Source: an uncultured Verrucomicrobiae bacterium (GTDB lineage: Bacteria; Verrucomicrobiota; Verrucomicrobiia; Limisphaerales; JAFGQR01). Taken from it: a DNA stretch of 16,163 nt. Under the pieces are notes generated by a model. It was not told the origin of the DNA and did not search any database. It was given only the letters and a program-made list of their open reading frames with translations. The position numbers and the translations under genes were made by a program. The stretch covers positions 1 through 16,163 of the forward strand of contig CAWBHS010000042.1 of NCBI GenBank assembly GCA_963788655.1, given 5' to 3'. Positions 1 through 16,163 of this stretch are shown here, one piece after another; position 1 is the stretch's first letter; each line of letters begins with the position of its first letter.

Positions 1-2193
<2,193 letters not shown>

Positions 2194-2201
<8 letters not shown>

Positions 2202-2510
2202 AACGCTGACACTGATGCTGGCTGGCTGCCGCAGGCGCGGCTGCTCGGCGCGATTTTCTTCGGCGGCCTTTGGTGGACGGTGCGCAGGGGCGTTTCGTCC
2301 CCACGACCGGCGCTTTGGTTCTTCGGCAGCATGCTGCTGCGGATGAGCATTGTCCTGGCTGGATTTTATTTTGTCGGGCGCGGGCATTGGGAGCGGCTCG
2401 TGGCCTGTTTGCTTGGATTCATCATCGCGCGTTTCATCGTGATGCGGTTGACCCGCACGCCGGTCGAAAACCACAACTCCCGAGCGAAGGAGGCCAGCCA
2501 TGCGCCTTAG
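2194..2510 (+). CDS. atpR: N-ATPase AtpR subunit (frameshift near 2225-2240)
   Basis: MNETLTLMLA... joins LLGAIFFGGLWWTVRRG...WFFGSMLLRM...LLGFIIARFIV. It has the two intramembrane Arg residues typical of AtpR and lies between atpQ and atpB. Confidence 0.85.
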
Positions 2511-3202
2511 TCCCGATGAGATGATTTTCTGGCAACACGGGTTTTTCAAACTCAACGCGACGATTGTTTTCACGTGGGGACTGATGCTCGTCCTCGCCGT
2601 CGGTTCAAAACTCATCACGCGCAAACTGACCACCGAGCACACGCGTTCCCGCTGGCAGAACCTGTTGGAAATCGTCGTCACCGGCATCGCGAAACAAATC
2701 GAAGAAGTCGGCCTCCAGAACCCGAAGAAGTATATCGGTTTTCTGGGCACGCTCTTTCTGTTCGTCGCGCTGGCCAGCGTCTGCACCATCATTCCCGGCT
2801 ACGAACCGCCGACCGGCTCGCTCTCGACCACCGTGGCACTCGCGCTGTGCGTGTTTGTGGCCGTGCCGCTGTTCGGCATCGAGGACCAGGGCGTGGGCGG
2901 CTACCTCAAGTCCTACATCGAGCCGACGTTCATCATGCTGCCGTTCAATATCATCAGTGAGATCTCCCGCACGCTGGCCCTGGCCGTCCGCCTGTTCGGC
3001 AACATGATGAGCGGCGCGATGATCATCGGGATTCTGCTGACCATCACGCCCTTCATCTTTCCCATCGTGATGACGGTGCTCGGTCTGCTCACCGGCATGG
3101 TGCAGGCCTACATCTTTCAGCATCCTGGCCGCGGTTTACATCGCGGCCGCCACCCGCACGCGCCAGCCCAAGCTTGAGCCTGAGCCGGCAACCACAACTT
3201 GA
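2500..3202 (+). CDS. atpB: F0 subunit a (frameshift near 3117)
   Basis: PFNIISEISRTLALAVRLFGN and VQAYIF motifs. Removing one base gives ...FSILAAVYIAAATRTRQPKLEPEPATTT* ending at TGA 3200-3202. Confidence 0.93.
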
Positions 3203-3232
3203 AACAACAACGAATCAACCAAAGGACATATT

Positions 3233-3523
3233 ATGGATAGCATGACAATCATCGCGGTGGCATCAATTGTCACCGCCGGCATCACCACCGGTTTCGGCAC
3301 GATGGGGCCGGCGCTGGCGGAAGGGAAGGCGGTCGCGACCGCCCTGACTTCGCTGGCGCAGCAGCCCGACGCCTCCGCCACCATCACGCGAACCCTCTTC
3401 GTCGGTCTGGCGATGATCGAGTCCACGGCCATCTATTGCTTCGTGGTCTCGATGATTCTGATTTTCGCCAACCCGTTCTGGAATCACGTCATCGCCGCGG
3501 CAACCCAGGCGGCAGGAAAGTGA
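3233..3523 (+). CDS. atpE: F0 subunit c with Na+-type ligand set
   Basis: Hairpin with QQPD loop; PALAEG in helix 1 and ESTAIY in helix 2; SD AAGGA upstream. Confidence 0.96.
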   Translation: MDSMTIIAVASIVTAGITTGFGTMGPALAEGKAVATALTSLAQQPDASATITRTLFVGLAMIESTAIYCFVVSMILIFANPFWNHVIAAATQAAGK

Positions 3524-3527
3524 ACCT

Positions 3528-4374
3528 ATGCTGATTGACTGGTTCACCGTCGGTGCGCAGGCGCTCAACTTCCTCATCCTCGTGTGGTTGTTGAAGCGTT
3601 TTCTCTACAAACCCATCCTCAACGCCATTGACGCGCGGGAGAAGCGGATCGCCAAGGAACTCGCGGACGCCGACGCGAAAAAAGCCGAAGCTCAAAAGGA
3701 GCGCGACGAATTCCAGAAGAAGAACGAGGAGTTCGACCAGCAGCGCGCCGCTCTTTTGACCAAGGCGACAGACGAGGCAAAAACCGAACGCCAACGACTC
3801 CTCGACGAAGCCCGCAAGGCGGCCGACGCCCTGAGCGCCAAGCGACAGGAGACGCTGCGCAACGACGCCCACAATCTGAATCAAGCCATCGCGCGCCGGA
3901 CTCAAGACGAAGTGTTTGCCATCGCCCGCAAGGCGCTGACGGATCTCGCCACGACGAGTCTGGAAGAGCGGATGGGCGAAGTGTTCACGCGTCGTTTGCG
4001 CGAGATGGACGGCAAGGCGAAAGCCAGTCTCGGCGAGGCCCTGAAGACCGCGTCCGAGCCTGCACTCGTGCGCAGCGCTTTCGACCTGCCGGCGGAGCAA
4101 CGCGCGGCGATCCAAAATGCGCTCAACGAAACTTTCTCGGCTGACATTCACCTTCGGTTCGAGACCGCGCCGGACTTGGTCAGCGGGATCGAACTCACCA
4201 CGAATGGACAAAAAGTGGCCTGGAGCATCGCGGATTACCTCGCGTCGCTGGAAAAAGGCGTCGGCGAACTTCTGAAAGAGAAGGACAAGCCTCAAGCTCA
4301 AAGCCGAGCCAAAACCGGAAGCCAAGGTCGAACCTAAACCGAAAGAACCCGTGCTTGATACAAAGAGCCAATGA
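3528..4374 (+). CDS. atpF: N-ATPase subunit b (extended b with delta-like C-terminus). ORF stops at 4337 as sequenced; probable native stop at 4374
   Basis: [30 protein letters not shown], then a coiled coil and the C-terminal [13 protein letters not shown]...KVAWSI. The alternative-frame tail [24 protein letters not shown] ends in an ATGA overlap with atpA. Confidence 0.92.
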
Positions 4375-6093
4375 ACGCCGCGCCTGAAAATTTGCAGAGC
4401 GTCTTCGACCGCACGTTTGCCGGCATCAGCCAGGTGCGGGAAACCTTCACGCCGCAACTGACACCGCATGAGGTGGGCACGATCACCAGCGTTTCCACGG
4501 GTATCGCCCGGGTCTCGGGTCTGCCCAGCGTCGGCTTTGAGGAGTTGGTGAAATTTCCCGGCGGCGCGTTTGGCATCGCGTTCAATGTGGACGAGGACGA
4601 AATCGGCGTCGTGCTGCTCGGCGAATACTCGCATCTGCACGCGGGCGATGAGGTCGAGCGCACGGGCCGGGTCATGGACGTGGCCGTGGGCGAAGGATTG
4701 CTGGGACGCGTCATTGACCCGCTCGGTCGGCCGCTGGATGCCAATGGGCCGGTGGCCGCCAGCGAGCGATTGCCCATCGAACGCCCGGCGGCGGCCATCA
4801 TGGATCGCGCGCCCGTCACCGTGCCGCTCCAGACCGGCCTCAAAGTCATTGATGCGCTCATTCCCATCGGGCACGGCCAGCGCGAGTTGATTCTGGGTGA
4901 CCGCCGGACAGGCAAAACGGCCATTGCGCTCGACACCATCCTCAACCAGCGCGACCGGAATGTCGTGTGCGTCTATTGTGCCATCGGCCAGCGCGCGTCC
5001 GCCGTCGCCAAGGTCGTGGCCAACCTCCGCGAAAAGGGCGCGATGGATTACACCGTGGTGGTCGTGACCGAGGGCAACGATCCGCCCGGGTCTTGCCTAC
5101 ATCGCGCCTTACGCCGCGACCAGCATCGCGGAGCATTTCATGGAAGCGGGTCGCGACGTGCTCATCGTGTATGACGACCTCACCCACCATGCCCGCGCCT
5201 ATCGCGAACTTTCCCTCCTGCTCCGCCGTCCACCCGGACGCGAGGCTTTTCCCGGTGACATTTTCTACATCCACTCGCGCCTGCTCGAACGCGCCACCCA
5301 TCTGAGCAAGGAACGCGGCGGCGGTTCGCTCACCGCGCTCCCCATCATCGAAACCGAGGCGCAGAACATTTCCGCCTACATTCCGACCAACCTGATTTCC
5401 ATCACGGACGGTCAGATTTACCTTTCGCCGTCGCTGTTCGAATTGGGCGTGCTGCCGGCGGTGGATGTCGCCAAATCCGTTTCGCGCGTCGGCGGCAAGG
5501 CGCAACAGGCGGCCTACCGCGCCGTGGCGGGCGACCTCAAACTCGCCTACGCGCAGTTCGAGGAACTCGAAACCTTTGCCCGGTTCGGCGCGCGCCTGGA
5601 TGAAGACACCCGCAAGATCATCGAGCATGGACGGCGCATCCGCGCCTGCCTCAAGCAACCGGAATTCTCTCCGGTGTCCGTGCCCGCACAAATCGCCGTG
5701 CTGCTGGCCTTGACCGCGGAACTTTTCGATCCCGTGCCACTGGACCGGATGACGGACGCCGAGCACGCCGTGCATGAGGCCGCGACGAAGATTCCGGCGG
5801 AGATCTGCGCACGGTTCGAAACCGCCAAAAAGTTGAGCGATGAGGATCGCAAAGTGATCATTGAACTCGCGCGCCAGGCGCTCGCGCCTTTCCAGCCCAA
5901 ACCGGAAGCCAAACCTGACGAGCCTGACCAAAAAACCGAAACGAAACCCAAACCGGAAGGAAAGGACGGGAACAAGTCGGAATCCAAACCGAACAAGTCC
6001 ACGCCGGAGTCCGAAGCCAAGCCTCGCAAAAAACTGATTCCAAGCCGGAAGCGCCAAACGCCAACCCCGAAAAAACAAATACTCAAACCATGA
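4371..6093 (+). CDS. atpA: F1 subunit alpha (frameshift near 5090)
   Basis: ORFs 4371-5174 and 5140-6093 join via [19 protein letters not shown]. Motifs [39 protein letters not shown] and SVSRVG are present. Confidence 0.96.
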
Positions 6094-6781
6094 GACACGC
6101 TGAAAAACACCGAACCCATCGAATCGGGTGGCTCCGCGCCGCCGTGCTCGGCGCCAACGACGGCATTGTCTCCACGGCCAGTTTGATCGTGGGCGTGGCC
6201 GCCGCCGAATCCAGCCGCAGCAGCGTGCTGGTCGCCGGCATGGCCGGGTTGGTGGCGGGCGCGATGTCGATGGCTGCCGGCGAATATGTGTCCGTCAGTT
6301 CCCAAGCCGATACGGAGCACGCCGACCTGGAACGGGAGCGTGAAGAGTTGGCGACGGACGGTGAAAGCGAACACGCAGAACTGGCCGCCATCTATGTGAA
6401 GCGGGGACTCGACGCAGACGCTGGCCAGCCAGGTCGCCACGCAGTTGATGGCCAAGGACGCCCTGGGTGCCCACGCCCGCGATGAACTGGGAATCTCCGA
6501 TACCCTGAGCGCGCGGCCGGTTCAGGCCGCCTTCGCCTCGGCGGGCAGTTTCACCGTCGGTGCCTTCCTGCCGCTCGTGCTGGTTCTCCTCGTGCCCGAT
6601 CCGCCTTGGTCTGGACGGTGTCCGGCGGCTCGCTTGCTGTTCCTCGCCCTGCTGGGTTCCCTGGCGGCCCGCGCCGGCGGCTCACCCGTGTGGATTTCAG
6701 TCGCTCGAGTGACTTTTTGGGGTGCGTTGGCCATGGCGTCTGACCGCCGGGGTGGGAGCTTTGTTTGGAGCGACACTTTGA
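6090..6781 (+). CDS. VIT1/CCC1 family Fe2+/Mn2+ transporter (several apparent frameshifts)
   Basis: [67 protein letters not shown]. The reconstructed end is [19 protein letters not shown] at TGA 6779-6781. Confidence 0.92.
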
Positions 6782-6801
6782 GCGATCGACCAGACTTTAC
6801 C

Positions 6802-7696
6802 ATGAGCGACACCACGGCCAGCCTGCGTCGGAAGATCAGCAGCGCCGGCGATCTCCAATCCGTCGTCCGCACGATGAAAGCCCTGGCCGCTTCGAGCATC
6901 GGGCAATACGAGAAATCCGTGCGCGCTTTGGGTGACTACTATCGCACCGTGGAGCTTGGGCTGGGCGCGTGCTTTCGCGAAAACGAGCCAGCGGCCCTGA
7001 CGGTGGAACGGAAAGGACAAACCGATGCGGGTGCCATCGGCGCGGTTGTGTTCGGCTCCGACCAAGGACTGGTGGGCCAGTTCAATGACGTGGTGGCCGA
7101 TTTTGCGGTGAAGACCCTCGCCGCTCTGCCCGGCAAATCCCAAGTCTGGGCCGTCGGCGAGCGCGTTCATGCGCGCCTGGCGGACGCGGGCCTGCCGCTG
7201 GTCGGCCTCTTCACCGTGCCGAATTCCGTCAAAACCATCACCCCGCTCGTCGGGCAGATTCTTGTCGAGCACGAGACACATCACGACCGGGGCGAAGTCA
7301 CCGAACTCCACCTCTTCTACAACCGCCCCACGTCCGGGAGCGGTTTATGCGCCCGTCCATCAGCGACTGCTCCCGCTGGACGAAACCTGGCGTCGCAAGC
7401 TGGCCGACCTTCCCTGGCCGACGAAGAACTTGCCCGAGGTCATGGGCGAGGGCACCGAGACCTTGCGGGCGCTGATCCGCGAATATCTTTTCGTCTCACT
7501 CTTCCGCGCGTGCGCTGAATCCCTCGCGAGCGAGAACGCGAGCCGCCTGGCAGCCATGCAGCGCGCCGACAAGAACATTGATGAACTGCTGGAGACGCTC
7601 CACGGCACGTTCCACCGTCTGCGCCAGAGCGGCATTGACGAGGAACTGTTCGACGTGATCTCCGGCTTCGAGGCGCTGGCCGGATCGCGTCGGTGA
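6802..7696 (+). CDS. atpG: F1 subunit gamma (frameshift near 7340)
   Basis: LRRKISSAGDLQSVVRTMKALAA, VFGSDQGLVGQFN, ESLASENASRLAAMQRADKNI, RQSGIDEELFDVISGFEAL. Confidence 0.95.
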
Positions 7697-7832: not shown

Positions 7833-7878
7833 GGTAGGGTTATACCCCATAGCGAAGGGCCTGCCTTCAGCTTAGCGT
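7833..7878 (+). promoter_or_regulatory. Palindromic box copy 1 (7833-7853) plus -10-like TAGCGT (7873-7878)
   Basis: Exact GGTAGGGTTATACCCCATAGC; intergenic; upstream of ATG 7928. Confidence 0.8.
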
Positions 7879-7927
7879 GTCACCAGCGGTCAAACGTAAA
7901 ACGCAAACTGTGAAATACCAGAATATT

Positions 7928-8394
7928 ATGAAATCCCTCGCGATTACCTTCTTCGCCATCACGGCCTTCGCGGTGGGCTGTAAACCGTCGGCGGAATCTT
8001 CGGCGACCAAAACCGGAGCAGCCACCTCGCAGCAGATCGACAAGGTCCAGGCAGAAACAGAACAAGCCGCGCAGGATATGAAGGATTATACCTTCGCGCA
8101 AAAAGCTGAATTCATCGAAACAATGCAGAGCCAGTTGGCCGAGATCAACGGGATCTGGACCAGCTCGCCGCCAAAATCGAAAAATCCAGCGACGCGGTCA
8201 AAGCCGAAGCCAAACCCAAACTTCAGGCGCTGCGCGATCAAACGGCCCAGTTGAACAAGCAGCTTGACGAGGCCAAGAACGCCACCGAGTCCACCTGGGA
8301 CAGCGTCAAAGGCGGCTTCAAGAAGGGCTACGAAGCGTCGAAGGAAGGGTTCAACCAAGCGCGCCAGTGGGTGAGCGACAAAATCGCGCCTTAA
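7928..8394 (+). CDS. Predicted alpha-helical lipoprotein (frameshift near 8150)
   Basis: Signal peptide with lipobox FAVGC. It continues after a frameshift as DLDQLAAKIEKSSDAVKAEAKPKLQALR...ATESTWDSVKGGFKKGYE...WVSDKIAP* to TAA 8392-8394. Confidence 0.8.
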
Positions 8395-8496
8395 CTCGAG
8401 TGGGCGGGCCCAAGAACCAAACCGATGGATCGCCATTGGTTGGTGCGGAAGCGCGCCCACCGGCGGTGGTTCCAGAAAACTGAAAGAAAAACAATT

Positions 8497-8649
8497 ATGT
8501 TATACACCATTGCGGTGGTCATCCTCCTCCTGTGGTTGCTTGGTCTGGTGACCAGTTACACGATGGGAGGGTTAATCCATGTCTTGCTGGTAGTTGCCAT
8601 CATCATGGTGCTGTTCAACCTTTTATTCGGACGCCGGCGCGCCGGCTGA
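8497..8649 (+). CDS. lmo0937-like small membrane protein (50 aa)
   Basis: MLYTIAVVILLLWLLGLVTSYTMGGLIHVLLVVAII matches the family pattern; an A-rich leader precedes ATG 8497. Confidence 0.85.
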   Translation: MLYTIAVVILLLWLLGLVTSYTMGGLIHVLLVVAIIMVLFNLLFGRRRAG

Positions 8650-8700
8650 AGGAACTGACACGCGGATCGACATCAACCACCCACTCATTGAAATACTGTT

Positions 8701-8908
8701 ATGAATAAAATCATTTCCCTGGCCCTACTCATTGGCGGAGTGGTGCTCATCATCTTTGGGATTCAGGCCACGGACTCCTTCAGCTCGGACGTTTCCCGGT
8801 TCTTTACCGGTTCGCCGACGGACAAGGCCATCTGGATGCTCATCGGAGGCATCCATCACCGCCATCGTAGGTCTGACGATGACATTGCGCGGTTCGAAAC
8901 CGAGTTGA
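8701..8908 (+). CDS. DUF3185-like small membrane protein (frameshift near 8853)
   Basis: SFSSDVSRFFTGSPTDKAIWMLIGG signature between two TM helices; corrected end is TGA 8906-8908. Confidence 0.82.
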
Positions 8909-9000
8909 ACCAGTAGGCGGCCGCACGGCGAAGAGAGGCAGCCTCCTTGTTTCGGCGACCCTCACGGCGGCCGGACTCTCTTCCCGGGCCGCAGACATCC

Positions 9001-9794
9001 ATGCGCGCCATTACGCAGACTGGGGGAGATTGTTTGGGCGCAGTGGGATGAACTGCGGCATGCGGCGGCGGTGATCGGGACCGTCGCTGGGCCTTGGAGT
9101 TCAACCGCGGTCCTGGGCGCGCCCGGTGCGGAAGCTCTTCGCGCGGCAGGTACTGGCCATCGGGGTCGAACCGCTCGGGTTTGTCTGCGCGGTGGCGGTG
9201 TTTGTCGGCATTTCGGTGGTGGTGCAACTCACTTTCTGGACCGGCCAAGCCGGGCAGTCACAACTGCTCGGGCCGCTGCTGGTGGCCGTCGTGGCGCGCG
9301 AACTCGGCCCGCTGCTGATCAACATCATCGTGATCGTCCGCAGCAGCAGCGCGATGGCCACCGAACTGGGCGTCCTCAAAATCAACGGGGAAGTCCGCGC
9401 CCTGGAAGCGCAGGGAAACGATCCGTTCGTGCATCTGGTGATGCCGCGCGTGCTGGGCATGGCGGTGTCCACGTTTTGCCTGACGATTGTTTTTATCCTC
9501 GTCGCCTTTGCGAGCGGCTATCTGTTCGCGGCCTGGATGGGGACGGGCAGTCGTGATTGTCTTGCTGTTCGCGGACACCGTGCTCAACGCGCTGTTCGCC
9601 CCAGGACATGTTCAACATCCTTGCCAAGAGCATCCTGCCCGCCCTGTTTGCCAGTGCGTCCTGTTGCATTGGCGGGCTGGGCGTGGGCGGCGTCGGTCAC
9701 GGAAATCCCGCACGCCACGCAACGGGCGCTCACCCGCTCCGTCGCCGGACTGTTTGTCATTTCGGCCGTGGTATCACTGCTGACCTACCTGTGA
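9001..9794 (+). CDS. MlaE-family ABC permease (several apparent frameshifts)
   Basis: VARELGPLL..IIVIVRSSSAMATELGVLKINGEVRALEAQGNDPFVHLVMPRV is the MlaE/DUF140 signature; the start at ATG 9001 is inferred. Confidence 0.88.
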
Positions 9795-9796
9795 CC

Positions 9797-9862
9797 ATGA
9801 ACGAACCGACCGGCATGCTGAATGCGCGCGACGTGACCGAGGCGGCAACCGAGGCCAACTGA
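9797..9862 (+). pseudogene. 21-codon ORF, possible remnant of an internally deleted ABC ATPase gene
   Basis: MNEPTGMLNARDVTEAATEAN*; starts 2 nt after the mlaE stop and its TGA overlaps the mlaD ATG; occupies the usual ATPase slot. Confidence 0.4.
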
Positions 9863-10864
9863 TGGAAGAGCGCTTTAAATTCCGGCACGTCCATGCAATC
9901 ACCGGCACGTTCGTGCTGGTCGTGGTCGCCGTGCTGATCGCCGCCGTGGTGTGGACGGGTCGCAGCCAGCGCTGGTTCATAAGCAATGTCACCCTGCGGA
10001 TCGTTTTGCCCGAGGCCGGCGCGGCGGGAATCCGGCAGGGATCGGAGGTTTACTTCCTGGGCACACTCGTAGGGTCGGTTTCCGATGTCATTGTGGACAC
10101 GACGGGCCGGATGGAAGCCCAGGCAACCATCCGCCGCGACTTCTTCCGGTTCGTGCGCGCGGATTCATCCGCGGTCGTCAAAAAGAAATTCGGCGTGGCG
10201 GGCGATTCCTTTTTTGAGATCACGCGCGGCCAGGGCCGGCCGTTGCCGGAGAAGAACGCTTCCATTGATTGCCGGGAATTGCCCGGCACGCTGGAAGCCG
10301 CGATTGAGGAAGTCCGCAGTGCCAGCTTTGCCGGTGCTCAAAAAGCTGAGCGCGGGCCTCGACACGTGGACCGTGCTCGGCACGAACCTGATCACCACGC
10401 GGGAGCGGTTGGACCAACTCCTTGCTCGCGTGGACAGCATCGCCGCCGACCTCCAGCAGGGCAAAGGCACCGCCGGCAAACTGATCACCGACACCGCGCT
10501 GGCGGACGAGGCGCAAACCCTCCTGGCGCGGGCGAACGAAGCGATGAGCGAGTTGCGAGCCGTGGCGACGAACCTGAACGTCGCGGTGAAGAACGTGCAA
10601 AACGGCACCGCCCGCCTGCCGGAAATCACCGACGCCGTGGCCAACGAGGCGAAAGATCTGCCCGGCTTGGTCGAGCAAACGCAGATTTCGATGCGCGAAG
10701 TCGAGCGGTTGGTGGAAGCGATGCAACGACACTGGCTCTTGCGCAAATACGTGAACCACACGAATCCGCCGCCCTTGCGACCGTGGCCGACGAGCCAGGA
10801 ACCGGCCACCAAGCCGGTGAAGGTGTTCCGTTCGCCGCGGGATTCGGGGAGTTCGGGGAGGTGA
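9862..10864 (+). CDS. MlaD/MCE-domain protein (frameshift near 10322)
   Basis: N-terminal TM, then AAGIRQGSEVYFLGTLVGSVSDV and SSAVVKKKFGVAGDSFFEITRG (MCE domain), then a helical region with GKGTAGKLITD and HWLLR. Confidence 0.9.
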
Positions 10865-10868
10865 CCAC

Positions 10869-10914
10869 GGTAGGGTTATACCCCATAGCCCGTGGCCAAC
10901 TGAAGGCGTAGCGT
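10869..10914 (+). promoter_or_regulatory. Palindromic box copy 2 (10869-10889) plus -10-like TAGCGT (10909-10914)
   Basis: Exact 21-mer; same 40-nt offset to TAGCGT as copies 1 and 6. Confidence 0.8.
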
Positions 10915-10959
10915 GACCTTGTAATAAAAGCGAAAACGCACAAACGAAAGTGAACAAAT

Positions 10960-11211
10960 ATGCCATTAACTACAATTGTCATCACGCTGATTGTCGCCGG
11001 AGTCTTGCTCTGGCTCATCAACAACTACATTCCCATGGATGGTAAGATCAAAAAGATCCTCAACCTCGTGGTGGTGGTCGTGGTGGTCCTGTGGCTGCTC
11101 AATGTGTTTGGCGTGTGGGACCAACTCCGCAACCTTCGGACCTCCATTCAAGCGCCGACCTTGGCCGGGCTCACCTGCGGTGTCGGCACCCCATCTGAAG
11201 CAACCCTGTGA
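10960..11211 (+). CDS. Thivi_2564-like small membrane protein
   Basis: LIVAGVLLWLINNYIPMDGKIKKILNLVVVVVVVLWLLNVFG; two TM helices; A-rich leader. Confidence 0.82.
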   Translation: MPLTTIVITLIVAGVLLWLINNYIPMDGKIKKILNLVVVVVVVLWLLNVFGVWDQLRNLRTSIQAPTLAGLTCGVGTPSEATL

Positions 11212-11325
11212 AGCGGATTTGAAAATTAACTCGCCCACCGGCAGCCGAAACCACACTACACCGAAGACACTGGCCGACCGGCACGGCGACCAGGCAGACT
11301 GAGTCAAGCATTCCAGCACCCGAAC

Positions 11326-11703
11326 ATGAAGACACCGTTCGCTTACGGTAAAGCTGATTTCTTGACCGGCCTGGCGGTGGTGCTCCCGGCGGCGGTTTCC
11401 ATCGGGATCGTCGTCTGGCTGTTTGGCACGGTGGCCAATTTCACAGACACTTTGCTGCTGTTCGTGCCCAGGGCCTGGACCCATGCGCGGAACGGCCTGG
11501 GGCCGATGCACCTTTACTGGAGCGTGATGGCCCTGGTGGTGGCGATCCTGTTGGTGGGACTGGTGGGCCGACTCGCCCGTTACTATTTGGGCAAGAAGTT
11601 GATTCAAGTCGTGGACATGGTCCTCATGCGTGTGCCCCTGCTCAATAGGATTTACAGCGCCCTGAAGCAAATCAACCACGCCTTCACTTCCAACCACGCC
11701 TAA
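11326..11703 (+). CDS. DUF502-like membrane protein, N-terminal half only
   Basis: FLTGLAVVLP...VGLVGRLARYYLGKKLI...LMRVPLLNRIYSALKQI; stops before the usual C-terminal soluble part. Confidence 0.7.
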   Translation: MKTPFAYGKADFLTGLAVVLPAAVSIGIVVWLFGTVANFTDTLLLFVPRAWTHARNGLGPMHLYWSVMALVVAILLVGLVGRLARYYLGKKLIQVVDMVLMRVPLLNRIYSALKQINHAFTSNHA

Positions 11704-11780
11704 ACTCAATCGACTCCATGAACCAAGGGATAGAACCACCTCGCACCGGGATCGCCTGACCGGTTGACGAAAGAACCGCG

Positions 11781-12104
11781 ATGACCAACACGCTCACAAA
11801 CGGCGGAATTGTTTTAGTACCAGTTCGCTTGGAGTTCACGCATCCGACCGCCCGCACCGTTGGGGTCGCCGGAACGTTCCACGACTGGCGGTCAAAAACC
11901 AAGTCCATGGTTTCCCTGGGCAACGGTCGATGGCGGAAAGAAATGGTCTTGCCGCCCGGCACTTATGAATATTGCCTGGTCGTGGACGGCCAATGCCGAC
12001 CTGATCCGCTGGCCAAGGAGACAGTGCCCGACCCGTTCGGGGGGATGAACTCACTGCTGAAAGTGGGCCGGGGTGCCCAATGCCGGCCTTCGCAAGATGA
12101 TTGA
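11781..12104 (+). CDS. Glycogen-binding (AMPK-beta CBM48 / isoamylase early-set) domain protein, paralog 1
   Basis: VGVAGTFHDW...GRWRKEMVLPPGTYEYCLVVDGQ..PDP...DPFGGMNSLLKV. Confidence 0.85.
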   Translation: MTNTLTNGGIVLVPVRLEFTHPTARTVGVAGTFHDWRSKTKSMVSLGNGRWRKEMVLPPGTYEYCLVVDGQCRPDPLAKETVPDPFGGMNSLLKVGRGAQCRPSQDD

Positions 12105-12165
12105 TCGACGGGAAGTTACCTGCCTCAATCTGGATCCAAAATCTCCGACTCCTTTGGCTCAGGCA

Positions 12166-12212
12166 GGTAGGGTTATACCCCATAGCGCCCGTCGGAGGTT
12201 CCATATTAAAGT
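12166..12212 (+). promoter_or_regulatory. Palindromic box copy 3 (12166-12186) plus -10-like TAAAGT (12207-12212)
   Basis: Exact 21-mer; intergenic; upstream of the receiver and BON genes. Confidence 0.78.
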
Positions 12213-12219
12213 TGGTGCC

Positions 12220-12453
12220 ATGAGAACCAGCAGGCTCATCCAAGATGGCGAGTCAGCCGGAAGGCAACCTCCGGTTTTGCCGCAGGACTCCAACTGCACC
12301 CGAGTTGAAATCCGTTGGTGCGAGAGTGAAACCCAAGCGATTGATTTCCGTCCGGTGACCTTGGACATGCCGTCTCGCAGTAAGAATAGTGGGCGTCGCT
12401 GTTCCTGGCGAATTCCATCAACCCCATGGAAGCAAAGAAGTCGCATCGAATGA
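12220..12453 (+). CDS. Possible small leader ORF (77 aa), hypothetical
   Basis: MRTSRLIQDGESAGR...; its N-terminus resembles the ORF at 13992; its TGA overlaps ATG 12450. Confidence 0.3.
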   Translation: MRTSRLIQDGESAGRQPPVLPQDSNCTRVEIRWCESETQAIDFRPVTLDMPSRSKNSGRRCSWRIPSTPWKQRSRIE

Positions 12454-13049
12454 AAGAACTGCGCGAAAACGCCCCACCGAAAGCAGCGAAGCAAGCGATG
12501 AAGCCACTCCGTAATAATAGTCGAGGTGCCGTAGCAGTTGCCGGCCCCACGCAAATCCCGGCGCCTCCATCTGCGCGCATCCTGGTGGTCGAGGACAACG
12601 TGGAAATCCGCCAACTCAGCACGCAAATACTCATGCGCTCCGGCGGCTACCAAGTGGACGCCGCCGGGGACGGGGCCGCAGGTTGGGAGGCACTCCAGGC
12701 GAGCAATTTCGACCTTCTGATTACCGACCACAACATGCCGAAATTGACCGGCGTGGAGCTGGTTAAAAAAGTGCGTTCCGCGCGCATGGCCCTACCGGTC
12801 ATCCTGGCGACCGGCACGTTGCCCGAGGAGGAGTTGGCGCGGCACCCGTGGCTCCAGCTTGCCGCCACCCTGTTCAAGCCCTTCTCCCCTCACCAATTGT
12901 TGGCCACGGTGCAAGCGGTCCTCGGCGTGGACGAGCGTAGTGCTCGCGTCGCCCCTGAGCATTGCTTCCCGATGTTTGCCGCCCCATTCAGGCAGCCCTT
13001 GCCGTACCCTCAATCCGACCACCATGACCAAAGCACTCCCCACATTTAA
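12450..13049 (+). CDS. Stand-alone response regulator receiver (CheY-like) protein; start may be 12426
   Basis: RILVVEDN...FDLLITDHNMPKLTGVEL...PVILATG...KPF retains the phosphoacceptor Asp, the Thr and the Lys; there is no HTH output domain. Confidence 0.9.
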   Translation: MKELRENAPPKAAKQAMKPLRNNSRGAVAVAGPTQIPAPPSARILVVEDNVEIRQLSTQILMRSGGYQVDAAGDGAAGWEALQASNFDLLITDHNMPKLTGVELVKKVRSARMALPVILATGTLPEEELARHPWLQLAATLFKPFSPHQLLATVQAVLGVDERSARVAPEHCFPMFAAPFRQPLPYPQSDHHDQSTPHI

Positions 13050-13079
13050 AGCGAAAACAAAACCGAAAACAGAAACAAA

Positions 13080-13901
13080 ATGAAAGCAATCCATACGTTC
13101 GCGCTGATCGTTGTCGGCGCCGGGTTAGGCACCAGCACACCGCTGGGCGCTTCCGAAATCGACGACCGCATTGAGTCGTCCTTCAACCAGTCCTACGCGT
13201 ACCGCACTCACCTTAAAGATGACGCCATCAAGACCGTGTCCCGGAATGGAATGGTCACGTTGACCGGGCAGGTCAACGAAGCCAGCCACAAGTCCCTGGC
13301 CCAGGAAGTCGCGACCGGCTTGCCGGGGGTCCAGCGGGTGGACAATCGGCTGGAAGTCAAACTGGAGGGCACGGAGAAATCGGATACGTGGATCCGCGCG
13401 AAAGTGCGCAGCGTCCTGGCGTTGCATCGCAACGTGAGCGGCAGTCACACGCAAGTGGATATCCGAGATGGCGTGATCACCCTGCGCGGCGCCGCCACGA
13501 GCGAGGCGCAAAAGGAGTTGGCCGCCGAATATGCCGAAGACGTCCAAGGGGTTTTGCGGGTGACGAATGTAATGACGGTGGTCCGGCCCCCGGCCCCGGC
13601 GAACGAAACGGTGGTTGAGCCCGTTGATGACGCCTCCATCACCGCTCAGGTCAAGGTGGTCTTGCAATTGCATCGTTCCACCAGTTCCGTCCGCACCCAG
13701 GTCGGAACGACCAATGGCGTCGTCACGGTTAGCGGCCTGGCCAAGAATCGGGCGGAGAAGACGCTGGTCACAAAACTCGCCACCGACATCAGCGGGGTGA
13801 AGCGCGTCGTTAACAACATGACCCTGGCGCCGGCGGTGTCGGAACGAGGCATCCGACCGGTCCGGCCCGGGATCCTGCGAGTGGTGAGCACGACCGACTA
13901 G
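13080..13901 (+). CDS. OsmY-like exported protein with three BON domains
   Basis: Signal peptide, then three repeats: GMVTLTGQV...GVQRVDNRL, GVITLRGAA...GVLRVTNVM, GVVTVSGLA...GVKRVVNNM; also DDASITAQVK. Confidence 0.92.
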   Translation: MKAIHTFALIVVGAGLGTSTPLGASEIDDRIESSFNQSYAYRTHLKDDAIKTVSRNGMVTLTGQVNEASHKSLAQEVATGLPGVQRVDNRLEVKLEGTEKSDTWIRAKVRSVLALHRNVSGSHTQVDIRDGVITLRGAATSEAQKELAAEYAEDVQGVLRVTNVMTVVRPPAPANETVVEPVDDASITAQVKVVLQLHRSTSSVRTQVGTTNGVVTVSGLAKNRAEKTLVTKLATDISGVKRVVNNMTLAPAVSERGIRPVRPGILRVVSTTD

Positions 13902-13937
13902 GTTTACGGACGCGGGTCGTTCCTGTTCCCGAAACAG

Positions 13938-13983
13938 ATGGGGTGAACACCCCATAGCGCCGGCACGCTTTTCAGGTGACGTT
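13938..13983 (+). promoter_or_regulatory. Palindromic box copy 4 (ATGGGGTGAACACCCCATAGC, 13938-13958) plus -10-like GACGTT (13978-13983)
   Basis: Perfect 8-2-8 inverted repeat followed by the shared AGC tail; 22 nt to the hexamer. Confidence 0.7.
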
Positions 13984-13991
13984 CTCCGGTC

Positions 13992-14078
13992 ATGAATAGC
14001 AGACGACTCATCCAAAATGGAAAGTCCGACCGCGCACCACTGCGGCGGGCGGATCGGCTGAACCCATTCAGATCGTGA
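13992..14078 (+). CDS. Possible 28-aa leader peptide
   Basis: MNSRRLIQNGKSDRAPLRRADRLNPFRS*; similar to the start of the 12220 ORF and at the same distance from its box. Confidence 0.3.
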   Translation: MNSRRLIQNGKSDRAPLRRADRLNPFRS

Positions 14079-14087
14079 AAGGAAAAT

Positions 14088-14243
14088 ATGTTAGGAACTA
14101 TCTTGGTGATTTTGCTCGTTCTCATGTTGCTCGGCGCCCTCCCGACCTGGCCCCACAGCCGGCGTTGGGGGTATTACCCGAGCGGCGGACTGGGCCTGGT
14201 GCTGGCCATTCTGGTTGTCTTGCTCTTGCTGGGCAGACTCTGA
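14088..14243 (+). CDS. DUF3309-like small membrane protein (51 aa; below the ORF-track cutoff)
   Basis: MLGTILVILLVLMLLGALPTWPHSRRWGYYPSGGLGLVLAILVVLLLLGRL*; SD AAGGA upstream. Confidence 0.9.
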   Translation: MLGTILVILLVLMLLGALPTWPHSRRWGYYPSGGLGLVLAILVVLLLLGRL

Positions 14244-14340
14244 GCCAGAGAGGTACGAATTCGAACGCGCCGTGGGCCATCCGCCCGCCCGGTCGGGTGA
14301 AGACCAACCAATCACCGCAGCAAGAGAAAGCCCATCCAAA

Positions 14341-14550
14341 ATGACACCATTGCTCCGCCGAGTGCTTCACGTTGGGGTGATCGTAACGACGGTCGTTCAA
14401 CGAATCTGGGAAAGCATCTTAAGGCTCTTACCTTCCCAAGCGCCGGTGACCCGGCGAACCACGGAAAGACTCGCTGCGCTCAAGCGCAAAGAGATGGAAT
14501 TGGAACGGCTCGATCGCCTGAGAAATCCCCGCGACTATCAAGGAAGGTGA
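14341..14550 (+). CDS. Small hypothetical protein (69 aa)
   Basis: MTPLLRRVLH...ERLAALKRKEMELERLDRLRNPRDYQGR*; protein-like charged helical C-terminus; collinear with neighbouring genes. Confidence 0.55.
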   Translation: MTPLLRRVLHVGVIVTTVVQRIWESILRLLPSQAPVTRRTTERLAALKRKEMELERLDRLRNPRDYQGR

Positions 14551-14787
14551 GGCTCCTGCCTGCGTCGCGCCGCAATTCCACCCCGACGTTCCTCAAGGTT
14601 CTGTTGCTGAACTTTCCCTCCCGCAGTCGTCTGTGTTGTGCGCACAGATAGGCCGATTATTGGCCCGCTAAACAACCAAACTGATCAACGTCCGGAATGT
14701 GCCGGGCTGCCTGTTCGATCTCGAACCGCCCCGCCTGTGCTGCTGGAGAAGAGGGGCGCCGGTGCCCATCCATTCAGCTTCAGCCCG

Positions 14788-14900
14788 GTAGCGCAGAGTT
14801 GCACTCTGCGGGCCGCTGCGTCAATCCCCGCGGGCTCCGAAGTTGCGTACAGCTTGCCGAATACAATTCGGCGATACAGCAGATTGAAAATCTGCGCTAC
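14788..14900. repeat. GTAG-type REP doublet (REPIN/BIME-like)
   Basis: GTAGCGCAGAGTTGCACTCTGC (14788-14809) and the inverted GTAGCGCAGATTTTCAATCTGC (14900-14879) are each GTAG plus a hairpin. An inner palindrome GCCGAATACAATTCGGC lies at 14856-14872. Confidence 0.75.
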
Positions 14901-15008
14901 GGCAAAATGTAGTCCATCCTTCCGTCTCATCAGTATGCGGAAGTAGTCCCTCGGGCATGCTGGCAATACTTCTCTATTCCAGGAATACCATTGCCAGCAC
15001 CCATTGGC

Positions 15009-15305
15009 TTACTTCTTTTCCGTGTCCGCTTTGGCTTTTTCGAGTGCCGCCTGGGCGTCCGCTTTCTTTTTATCAGCATCCAGTTGGGCCTGGTCAGCGA
15101 CCTTCTTGGCTTCGATCTTTGCTTTTTCAAGCGCCGCATCCGCATCCGCCTGTTGTTTGTTAGCTTTCGCGGCGGCGTCCACTGCTTCCTTTTGAGTGTC
15201 GATCGTGTTTTGGGTGGCATCGGCATTGTTGTCGATGGCCGTCTTCGGTTTGTCGCAGCCCATGAGGACACAGGCGGCAACGATTCCCAGTATTATTGGT
15301 TTCAT
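15009..15305 (-). CDS. Ala/Lys/Asp-rich small lipoprotein
   Basis: MKPIILGIVAACVLMGC lipobox, then a hydrophilic repetitive helix (ADADAALEKAKIEAKK / ADAQAALEKAKADTEKK); A-rich leader. Confidence 0.85.
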   Translation of the reverse strand: MKPIILGIVAACVLMGCDKPKTAIDNNADATQNTIDTQKEAVDAAAKANKQQADADAALEKAKIEAKKVADQAQLDADKKKADAQAALEKAKADTEKK

Positions 15306-15369
15306 AATTTTCGGTTTTGGTTGTTGACGGCGCTTATTCGCGGTCAGCGTTTTTCAAGCGCGCAGTCGT

Positions 15370-15415
15370 ATTCTGCGCCAATTCGGGAATGGGCGCTATG
15401 GGGTAAATACCCCAT
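15370..15415 (-). promoter_or_regulatory. Palindromic box copy 5 (minus strand ATGGGGTATTTACCCCATAGC, 15415-15395) plus -10-like CAGAAT (15375-15370)
   Basis: Perfect 8-2-8 inverted repeat whose AGC tail points at the only minus-strand gene; 22 nt to the hexamer. Confidence 0.75.
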
Positions 15416-15597
15416 GGCTGTGGGGCAGCCCGAACGAACGCAACCGCCGGAGGATCCCGGGTCCAACCCGGTCCCACCCCGTTGAAGCGAAGTTGGCCCG
15501 GGCAGTTCCAAGGGGGCCGTAACAAAACCCAGGAATGCCCGCGCCGGAAAGCAGCCCCGCCCTGATCACTCCTGGCCGAATCCCTCCCCAATGGCAC

Positions 15598-15643
15598 GGT
15601 AGGGTTATACCCCATAGCCAAGCGCCAGCCCACCGTCTAGCGT
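15598..15643 (+). promoter_or_regulatory. Palindromic box copy 6 (15598-15618) plus -10-like TAGCGT (15638-15643)
   Basis: Exact 21-mer; shares the 25 nt CACGGTAGGGTTATACCCCATAGCC with copy 2. Confidence 0.8.
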
Positions 15644-15678: not shown

Positions 15679-16065
15679 ATGAAACATCACAATAACCCTG
15701 ACCCCGCCAAGAGCGCCGGGCGTCAATTGGAGCCGGTTTGCTTCGAATTCACGCATCCCACAGCTACCACCGTTTGTGTGGCCGGGACGTTCAACGACTG
15801 GCAGCCCGAAGCCAAGCCGATGCATCCCGTGGGCGAGGGGCGCTGGCTTAAAGAGACGGTCTTGCCGGCCGGCACCTATGAATACTGCCTGGTGGTGGAC
15901 GGCCATTGGATCCCCGATCCGCGGGCCAAGGAAACGACGCCGAATCCGTTCGGAGGGAGGAACTCGCTGCTGACGGTGCCCAAGTCGCTGGAAGCAACCC
16001 ATCTCGTCGACGCGGAACATTTGCCATTGAAGAACGCCAACAAACCGAAAACACAGATATTATGA
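15679..16065 (+). CDS. Glycogen-binding (AMPK-beta CBM48 / isoamylase early-set) domain protein, paralog 2
   Basis: VCVAGTFNDW...GRWLKETVLPAGTYEYCLVVDGHWIPDP...NPFGGRNSLLTV. Confidence 0.88.
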   Translation: MKHHNNPDPAKSAGRQLEPVCFEFTHPTATTVCVAGTFNDWQPEAKPMHPVGEGRWLKETVLPAGTYEYCLVVDGHWIPDPRAKETTPNPFGGRNSLLTVPKSLEATHLVDAEHLPLKNANKPKTQIL

Positions 16066-16163
16066 GCAAACAAACAAAAGCAATCAGCAACGACCTGGGC
16101 CAACTGGCCGACGACGCGCGCGCCTTGATGGTCGCCACCGCCGGCGTGGCTGACGAAAAAGTC
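16062..16163 (+). CDS. DUF883 / ElaB-YqjD-like protein, N-terminus (3'-truncated by the window)
   Basis: MSKQTKAISNDLGQLADDARALMVATAGVADEKV resembles the DL..L..D...L...TA....EK start of the family; ATGA overlap with the upstream gene. Confidence 0.7.
   Translation, partial: MSKQTKAISNDLGQLADDARALMVATAGVADEKV

Follow-up and report, generated by a model that had tools for sequence, protein, structure and literature searches.

A promoter box in two coupled forms and its candidate NarL/FixJ-family reader in a probable general-stress regulon of Verrucomicrobiota

Response regulators of the NarL/FixJ family include the closest described counterparts of the system treated here: a two-part promoter box, present six times in a stretch of DNA from an uncultured Verrucomicrobiae bacterium, and its candidate reader, a protein we call R. 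The stretch, all 16,163 nt of contig CAWBHS010000042.1, is referred to as the window. The degenerate NarL consensus is TACYYMT-NN-AKRRGTA. NarL sites of the 7-2-7 type read TACCCCT-AA-AGGGGTA, and Escherichia coli NarL activates from sites at -38 to -49 (napF, yeaR), according to the available text of PMC4549865. DevR/DosR of Mycobacterium tuberculosis, also of the NarL family, binds a palindrome of 18–20 bp with G4G5G6 halves, is positively autoregulated and serves stress and dormancy targets; its promoters need tandem primary and secondary boxes (excerpts of PMC3177182). RcsB and Bacillus subtilis ComA, which have a related tetrahelical helix-turn-helix (HTH), use several binding arrangements or partners: ComA recognizes an inverted or a direct repeat at different promoter classes, and RcsB combines with partner proteins (PMC4797271 and PMC5829831, each in the part available).

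On sequence grounds, the boxes are real and conserved promoter signals and most likely the operator of a probable general-stress regulon, with R as its NarL/FixJ-family activator. R belongs to the same family as NarL, and the boxes are predicted to lie in the range of the NarL activating sites. The half-site is another matter. The original prediction, an earlier note on this DNA, had likened it to the NarL heptamer, and the likeness fails because the polarity is opposite, CCCC...GGGG in NarL and GGGG...CCCC here. Nor does R score as an orthologue of NarL or NarP (129 bits where the NarL cut-off is 250, and 117 against 343), and it lies below the cut-off of all 25 best NCBIfam equivalogs shown. 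The box geometry is like that of DevR/DosR and not the 7-2-7 of NarL: in our own alignment, the palindromic form of the box, form B, also fills G4G5G6 when set in a 20-bp frame. The half-sites then continue differently, A7C8T9 in DevR and G7T8R9 in form B. The boxes here appear mostly single, and the available text on DevR (PMC3177182) shows no counterpart of the asymmetric short form, form A. Targets and sensors differ as well, with no GAF haem domain among the kinase matches here. Unlike the sites of ComA and RcsB, the two forms are both inverted, differ by one base of spacing and in the distal half, and occupy the same promoter position. The closest solved relatives of R in sequence and fold are LiaR and VraR (PDB 5HEV, 4GVP), at only ~33–38% identity; the fold also matches DesR and RcsB. 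The activator mechanism is of a known kind, and the coupled pair of site forms is unusual. No description of the box or the regulator stood among the listed matches of a literature search, most subscription papers, supplements, RegPrecise and CollecTF lying outside that search.

Two forms of the box and their promoter geometry

A motif search of the window returned the six boxes where the original prediction had placed them (Table 1), along with two reverse readings from palindromic boxes; 200 shuffles of the window gave a mean of 0.01 matches. The -10 hexamers and their gaps are likewise as described, with a gap of 22 nt everywhere except at box 3, and the CCCCAT side of each box points toward the genes, including the minus-strand gene. 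Two further claims stand in part. The boxes had been called six palindromes, which fits the two form-B copies; the four identical copies lack such symmetry, and their halves stand one base closer together. All had been called intergenic, but box 2 sits within the mechanical open reading frame (ORF) 9862–10911 and would fall between genes only if the frameshifted MlaD gene stops at 10864 in the other frame. Gene frameshifts are frequent in the source genome, G000, an 8.96-Mb draft that is 86% complete and of which the window is contig C42; they are probably sequencing errors. VPDSG-CTERM domains encoded in this draft point to Verrucomicrobiota. The copies in the window are partly dependent, as boxes 1 and 6 are 77% identical over 73 nt and boxes 3 and 4 share a leader.

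The two forms have the promoter-side half WYACCCCAT in common. Form A, with four copies in the window, is asymmetric and reads GGTAGGGT-3 nt-ACCCCAT. Form B, with two copies, is a true palindrome, ATGGGGT-4 nt-ACCCCAT. A free-spacer scan of G000 gave strong sites at spacers 3 and 4 only. The genome totals are 14 form-A sites (GGTAGGRT-TWT-ACCCCAT) and 8 form-B sites (TGGGGT-RWWY-ACCCCA), at least 3 of these 22 being duplicates on overlapping contigs. Against a third-order Markov expectation, the 16-mers number 11 vs 0.003 for form A and 8 vs 0.027 for form B.

Half-site sequence is coupled to spacer length. Distal letters were left free and counted in G000 and 36 island loci of 10–20 kb, regions picked for holding boxes. 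Of 81 sites that have a -10 and a 3-nt spacer, 71 carry A at -1 and 76 carry G at -3; of 38 sites with a 4-nt spacer, 33 carry G at -1 and 28 carry A at -3. There were also 7 matches at spacer 2, none of them with a -10, and 13 at spacer 5, one of them with a -10. The forms also replace each other at homologous promoters: 48 homologous pairs have A in one member and B in the other, with downstream identity above 34/60 against a null maximum of 30. Among the 30 largest promoter clusters shown, 7 contain both forms. The DUF3309 promoter, for example, has form B in the window (box 4) and form A in four relatives.

Both forms keep a fixed distance to a -10 hexamer. In site sets collected by exact patterns, with kin included, nAnnnT stands at gap 22 on the CCCCAT side of 149 of 200 distinct form-A sites and on the opposite side of 7; with TAnnnT the figures become 105 and 2. 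At form-B sites, a -10 is present at gap 21–24 in 131 of 169 cases (60 at 22, 49 at 23), with one on both sides at 19 sites and on neither at 38. The ATG peak downstream of the boxes falls at gap 35–36, as leaderless transcripts would have it; the ATG at 12220, 36 nt from box 3, likely marks a start region, and the one at 13992, 36 nt from box 4, opens an upstream ORF of 28 codons. Conservation across form-A sites is highest at the box and the -10 and lower between them; G is kept at -33 in 85% of 203 sites. The 20 nt upstream of these 203 sites hold almost no information, and tandem boxes are few in the loci, though degenerate secondary sites may be present. The AGC tail of box 1, at 7851–7853, occupies the -35 position. 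Form-B sites carry an AG tail on the -10 side in 65 of 131 cases and on the far side in 16 of 131; since the tail tracks the -10 side, it is best read as a weak -35.

Across G000, TAnnnT is enriched 6–8 nt ahead of the ATG in 2567 operon-first genes (crude gene calls), and in 165 such leaderless promoters TTG is the commonest -35 trimer, with spacers of 16–18. From this survey and the geometry, the box promoters resemble ordinary sigma-70 promoters without TTG, with the end of the dyad at -35/-36. A consensus sigma-70 scan gave 2 sites, which is chance level, and none at the boxes, as expected for promoters that lack TTG. As at class II promoters, the site abuts -35 and keeps a constant spacing to a sigma-70 -10, the positions relative to +1 being predicted ones. 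This agrees with the dimeric activator abutting -35 that had been proposed: if the hexamer starts at -12, the site centre is predicted at about -43 to -44.5.

The candidate regulator R

As had been noted, no regulator is encoded in the window. The NarL/FixJ-family reader that was proposed now has a conserved candidate in the same island, R, with an apparent association with the boxes. The intact copy of R is at C97:3290–3982 of G000 and a frameshifted copy is at C18:40–730; on both contigs, R follows CheB, CheR, PAS and HisKA_3 genes, and a form-B box heads the run. Contig overlaps (C18–C97 94%, C18–C41 99%, C41 and the first 1379 nt of the window 98%) place R ~36 kb ahead of the window. R consists of a receiver domain (PF00072) and a GerE/LuxR HTH domain (PF00196). 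Its phospho-acceptor set, D62, S90 and K112, is invariant in 10 of 10 aligned sequences, and its recognition helix, KTVEKHR, is nearly invariant over three phyla. A HisKA_3 kinase is encoded just upstream of R or one gene off in eight genomes (G000, G136, G075, G068, G134, G043, G179 and G248) and does not adjoin R in G047.

Of the 301 genomes of the order, 119 have at least one form of the box (36 have the 18-mer, 80 the 16-mer of form A and 103 that of form B); the reversed controls gave 0. R was found (E<=1e-75) in 98 of the 119 box-positive genomes and in 30 of the 182 box-negative ones, counts in which kin are not independent. Of those 30, 27 have looser boxes, with 89 matches vs 4 control matches. 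In loci of at least 10 kb, 13 of 16 R copies have a box-like match upstream on the same strand, and 8 of 16 have one within 600 nt downstream. A GTDB scan found at least 139 loci with the box; the 80 matches listed are mostly from Verrucomicrobiota, including Lentisphaeria and Kiritimatiellia, with others from Planctomycetota and Acidobacteriota. R orthologues 70–74% identical stand amid box clusters in two Acidobacteriota (G301, G305) and a member of the Sedimentisphaerales (G302). The boxes around them have nearly all a 3-nt spacer, in genomes reached through form-A matches, a selection that favours form A there. The cultured Brevifollis gellanilyticus has both box and R.

Several points weigh against this assignment, or against treating the sites as independent. 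R was picked for lying near boxes in G000, the later genome survey being independent of the pick. G000 holds 24 GerE-domain matches, and the assignment of R therefore rests on association. Initially 21 box-positive genomes lacked R. Deeper searches gave partial or split copies in 6, and in the other 15 (1–5 boxes, 78–98% complete) R was not found by those searches. The upstream match counted for L023 among the 13 arose by chance; the true box there is 6.6 kb upstream. A paralogue group without the C-terminal tail of R shares its recognition helix, and these tail-less proteins may read form B in some genomes. Common descent accounts for part of the form-A set, the largest cluster holding 77 of 224 sites at 24/48 identity, and in G000 three form-A sites and one form-B site lie inside crude ORF calls. 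Finally, a 1-bp change of spacer together with an altered half-site is also what a heterodimer would lead one to expect.

If R is the reader, the system would work as follows. Phosphorylation of R at Asp62 would come from soluble PAS/HisKA_3 kinases, whose genes often accompany those of a CheB-CheR-PAS fusion or of KaiBC. R dimers would occupy the box, the site centre being at about -43 to -44.5 and the ACCCCAT half always next to -35. They would recruit sigma-70 RNA polymerase to promoters with an ordinary -10, in which TAG or TGG replaces TTG at -35. R would thereby turn on general-stress or dormancy genes and its own operon, in a positive feedback loop. Most likely, the same R protein reads both forms through two dimer geometries. 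RsbM of Bacillus cereus is CheR-like. In the RsbK–RsbM system of that organism, a methyltransferase tunes a stress sensor kinase, a parallel to the CheB-CheR-PAS fusion (PMC4574943, in the part available). A wider scheme can be put forward only tentatively: R might be the master switch of the Verrucomicrobiota stress or dormancy response and part of a mobile two-component island that spread to Acidobacteriota and Planctomycetota, filling the role that SigB, RpoS and EcfG have in other bacteria. In that scheme, one protein would serve two operators by two dimer geometries, its C-terminal tail allowing the second of them, the one-base indel and half-site change would tune promoter timing or strength, and CheB/CheR methylation or a KaiBC-linked kinase would provide the input.

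The surroundings of R vary. A clade of R with the helix KTVDKHR (L372, L373, L402, L422) comes from genomes with few form-A sites, and the 3.7-kb loci L372 and L373 show no box. At C76:22033–22168 of G000, a form-B box stands beside an 81-nt remnant of the R 3' end (93% to C18), a relic of the usual R-then-box order. At L025:6759–9291, a single operon led by a form-A box carries kaiC-kaiB-kaiB ahead of the kinase and R. A HisKA_3 protein without an ATPase domain heads the kinase operon at L023:6532–7248, L360:14889–15599, L362:6081–6695 and L355:4048–4533; possibly it is a phosphatase, a phosphotransfer protein or a kinase inhibitor. A secreted-looking protein of 163–169 aa, with no Pfam or NCBIfam match, is encoded between kinase and R at L027:13679–14167 and L362:7856–8362. 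The C18 kinase operon is broken by two near-identical genes for four-helix bundles of the 23S rRNA IVP family, lying in 615-nt repeats (L005:3778–4107, 6107–6433).

One reader or two, and other explanations

The alternative that survives best, though we reckon it unlikely, is that an R homodimer reads form B and a heterodimer of R and a second protein reads form A. RcsB heterodimers are the precedent (PMC5829831, available part). Such a pair would fit the form-A distal half, a distinct and strongly conserved word tied to its own spacer by the counts at -1 and -3, and the existence of genomes with form B only, such as G255 (11 B, 0 A). A palindrome of that distal half is, however, absent at spacers 0–8. 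The second island regulator, with a KTVEYHR helix, finds no support as an obligate form-A partner: with 10 candidates scored per genome, it is present in only 41 of 301 genomes and missing from many form-A-rich ones. G134 (2.3 Mb, 96% complete) has both forms and two GerE-domain proteins only, R and a second, unlinked protein whose recognition helix differs, and no other GerE protein in its island. G179, with 14 A and 9 B sites, has one KTVEKHR protein among 8. The 117 and 128 island proteins scanned, which are part of the ORFs of the loci, include no further DNA-binding family, and form A accompanies R into other phyla. A single protein with two modes is favoured over a heterodimer because of G134, G179 and the failure of the second island regulator to track form A, although a partner belonging to some other protein family may be involved. 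The 48 homologous A–B promoter pairs likewise speak for one reader.

R ends in a conserved C-terminal tail, ESSVQxTI, which lies outside the region aligned with LiaR/VraR and is of low confidence in the AlphaFold model (pLDDT below 50). Among 48 genomes with at least 4 boxes, two or more form-A sites are found in 33 of 37 with a tail-bearing KTVEKHR-type R and in 2 of 11 without one, an association framed after the data were seen, with kin not independent and with G143 (ESHLQITIE) scored tail-less by rule. Where R paralogues are tail-less, form B tended to be the sole form. It was not confirmed in 45 fresh genomes of the class. There, the 36 tail-bearing genomes have 73 A and 124 B sites, 6 of the 19 box-rich ones having at most 1 A; the 9 scored tail-less have 8 A and 5 B, all of the A sites coming from two genomes that keep V-x-L-T-I. 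A need for the tail at form A is thus a lead only.

An alternative sigma factor, RpoS-like of group 2 or of the ECF type, might recognize the box as an extended -35; this competing explanation, already raised in the original prediction, is weakened and appears very unlikely. In its favour, the target families match those of the SigB, RpoS and EcfG regulons, which contain overlapping general-stress families (CsbD, DUF883, BON, ferritin/Dps-like, catalase, OsmC, YflT). G000 has several RpoD-like and many ECF sigma factors, and the box promoters are mildly enriched in G at -15 (58%) and C at -14 (57%), which is not seen genome-wide. The box -10 is nevertheless of the ordinary sigma-70 type for G000. 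Form B is two-fold symmetric, at some sites with a -10 on both sides, a symmetry that one sigma region 4 would not need, and the box reaches to about -52. No sigma gene is found on C18, C19, C41, C42 or C97, the nearest being at C35:43226, 32 kb from the last box. The system would differ from the SigB, RpoS and EcfG regulons in its output, a predicted response regulator acting on sigma-70 promoters rather than an alternative sigma factor. It is possible that a group-2 sigma factor acts together with R.

The chance is slighter still that another transcription factor, encoded elsewhere, reads the boxes and that R is a passenger or a target. The 15 box genomes in which R was not found would fit this, as would the other regulators held by the islands, i.e., the KTVEYHR protein and the one at C41:9590. 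Against it, R is the sole DNA-binding protein common to the islands examined, and its recognition helix is almost invariant across three phyla. The C41:9590 regulator, which lies beside a box, was rejected as the reader, since the box there heads a truncated duplicate of a glycosyltransferase gene. We give practically no weight to a REP-like or mobile repeat, or copied promoter DNA without a selected binding function, for although some promoters are paralogous, the fixed -10 spacing at unrelated promoters contradicts it, as do the conservation peaks on box and -10, the at least 119 unrelated flank clusters among 224 form-A sites (threshold 24/48), the one-sided -10 and ATG spacing, and the lack of any match in Rfam and tRNA scans.

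Predicted targets and neighbouring features

Table 1. Boxes, hexamers and genes of the window
Feature	Position	Strand	Basis
Alternate (N-type) F1Fo ATPase operon with VIT1 gene	1..7696	+	domain matches
Box 1, form A (asymmetric, 3-nt spacer)	7833..7850	+	motif search
-10 hexamer TAGCGT, 22 nt past box 1	7873..7878	+	position and positional conservation
Predicted unit 1: sll1863-like lipoprotein (frameshifted), DUF5670, DUF3185, MlaE, MlaD (frameshifted)	7928..10864	+	domain matches; co-transcription predicted
Box 2, form A	10869..10886	+	motif search
-10 hexamer TAGCGT, gap 22, box 2	10909..10914	+	position
Predicted unit 2: Thivi_2564-family membrane protein, DUF502 (truncated), AMPK1_CBM glycogen-binding protein	10960..12104	+	domain matches
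Box 3, form A	12166..12183	+	motif search
-10 hexamer TAAAGT, gap 23, box 3	12207..12212	+	position
Predicted unit 3: single-domain receiver protein, triple-BON protein	12426..13901	+	domain matches
Box 4, form B (palindrome, 4-nt spacer)	13938..13955	+	motif search
-10-like hexamer GACGTT, gap 22, box 4	13978..13983	+	position
DUF3309 small membrane protein	14088..14243	+	domain match
Small Ala/Lys/Asp-rich putative lipoprotein	15009..15305	-	ORF and homologues
-10-like hexamer CAGAAT, gap 22, box 5	15370..15375	-	position
Box 5, form B, facing the minus-strand gene	15398..15415	-	motif search
Box 6, form A	15598..15615	+	motif search
-10 hexamer TAGCGT, gap 22, box 6	15638..15643	+	position
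Predicted unit 6: second AMPK1_CBM protein and start of gene in DUF883 position	15679..16163	+	domain match; DUF883 predicted from gene order in relatives

The box-led proteins of the window all have homologues in the islands of relatives. Orthologues from unit 1 (L349:8724, L351:13014) match NF052504, and homologues of the putative minus-strand lipoprotein in two relatives are also encoded near a form-B or B-like box. The islands add CsbD, DUF883, YflT, Hsp20, GrpE, ferritin, catalase, SOD, OsmC, dodecin, PRC-barrel, G6PD and 6PGD and, once, KaiBC. By annotation, the target set reads as a general-stress set. Verrucomicrobiota and Acidobacteriota are abundant in soil and have hardly any mapped regulation, and the system puts forward a candidate regulator, a precise motif and a set of targets for a probable general stress response of both phyla. 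A likely stress role is thereby assigned to DUF3309, DUF3185, DUF5670 and DUF502 proteins, and the coupled forms provide a natural test of how one HTH dimer tolerates a one-base change in spacing.

The N-type ATPase operon may also belong to the regulon, because on C41 it comes after a gene run headed by a form-B box. The operon is 82–90% identical in DNA to L019:1–5183, at the edge of the G136 island. It carries the VIT1 gene as an insertion between atpA and atpG, and the beta and epsilon subunits are in one ORF, probably through a frameshift.

A conserved leader of ~95 nt separates the predicted start and the DUF3309 gene (13992–14087; compare 12220–12260, L038:14763, L033:16188, L353 and L021). 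It usually starts with ATGAA and contains a short upstream ORF, of 28 codons here and 11–28 elsewhere, that is absent in G136. The nucleotide sequence is conserved, the peptide not clearly so, and the leader could be a regulatory RNA leader. At L001:9779–10287, a form-B box with leaderless geometry is followed by an ORF of 51 aa and the gene for the RNA polymerase omega subunit, which may be in the regulon.

Two other repeats were seen. The intergenic piece of 160 nt at 14777–14936 of the window is 82% identical to C76:2476–2635 of G000 and has a 22-nt inverted repeat; it is probably a REP-like element unrelated to the box. Another GGGG...CCCC family, ATGGGGC-ATT-GCCCCAT with degenerate tandem copies, occurs on C41 of G000 (L002:10370–10420, 11075–11125). 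Its copies lie between the NarL-type regulator gene C41:9590–10276 and the downstream genes and likely represent a small separate regulon.

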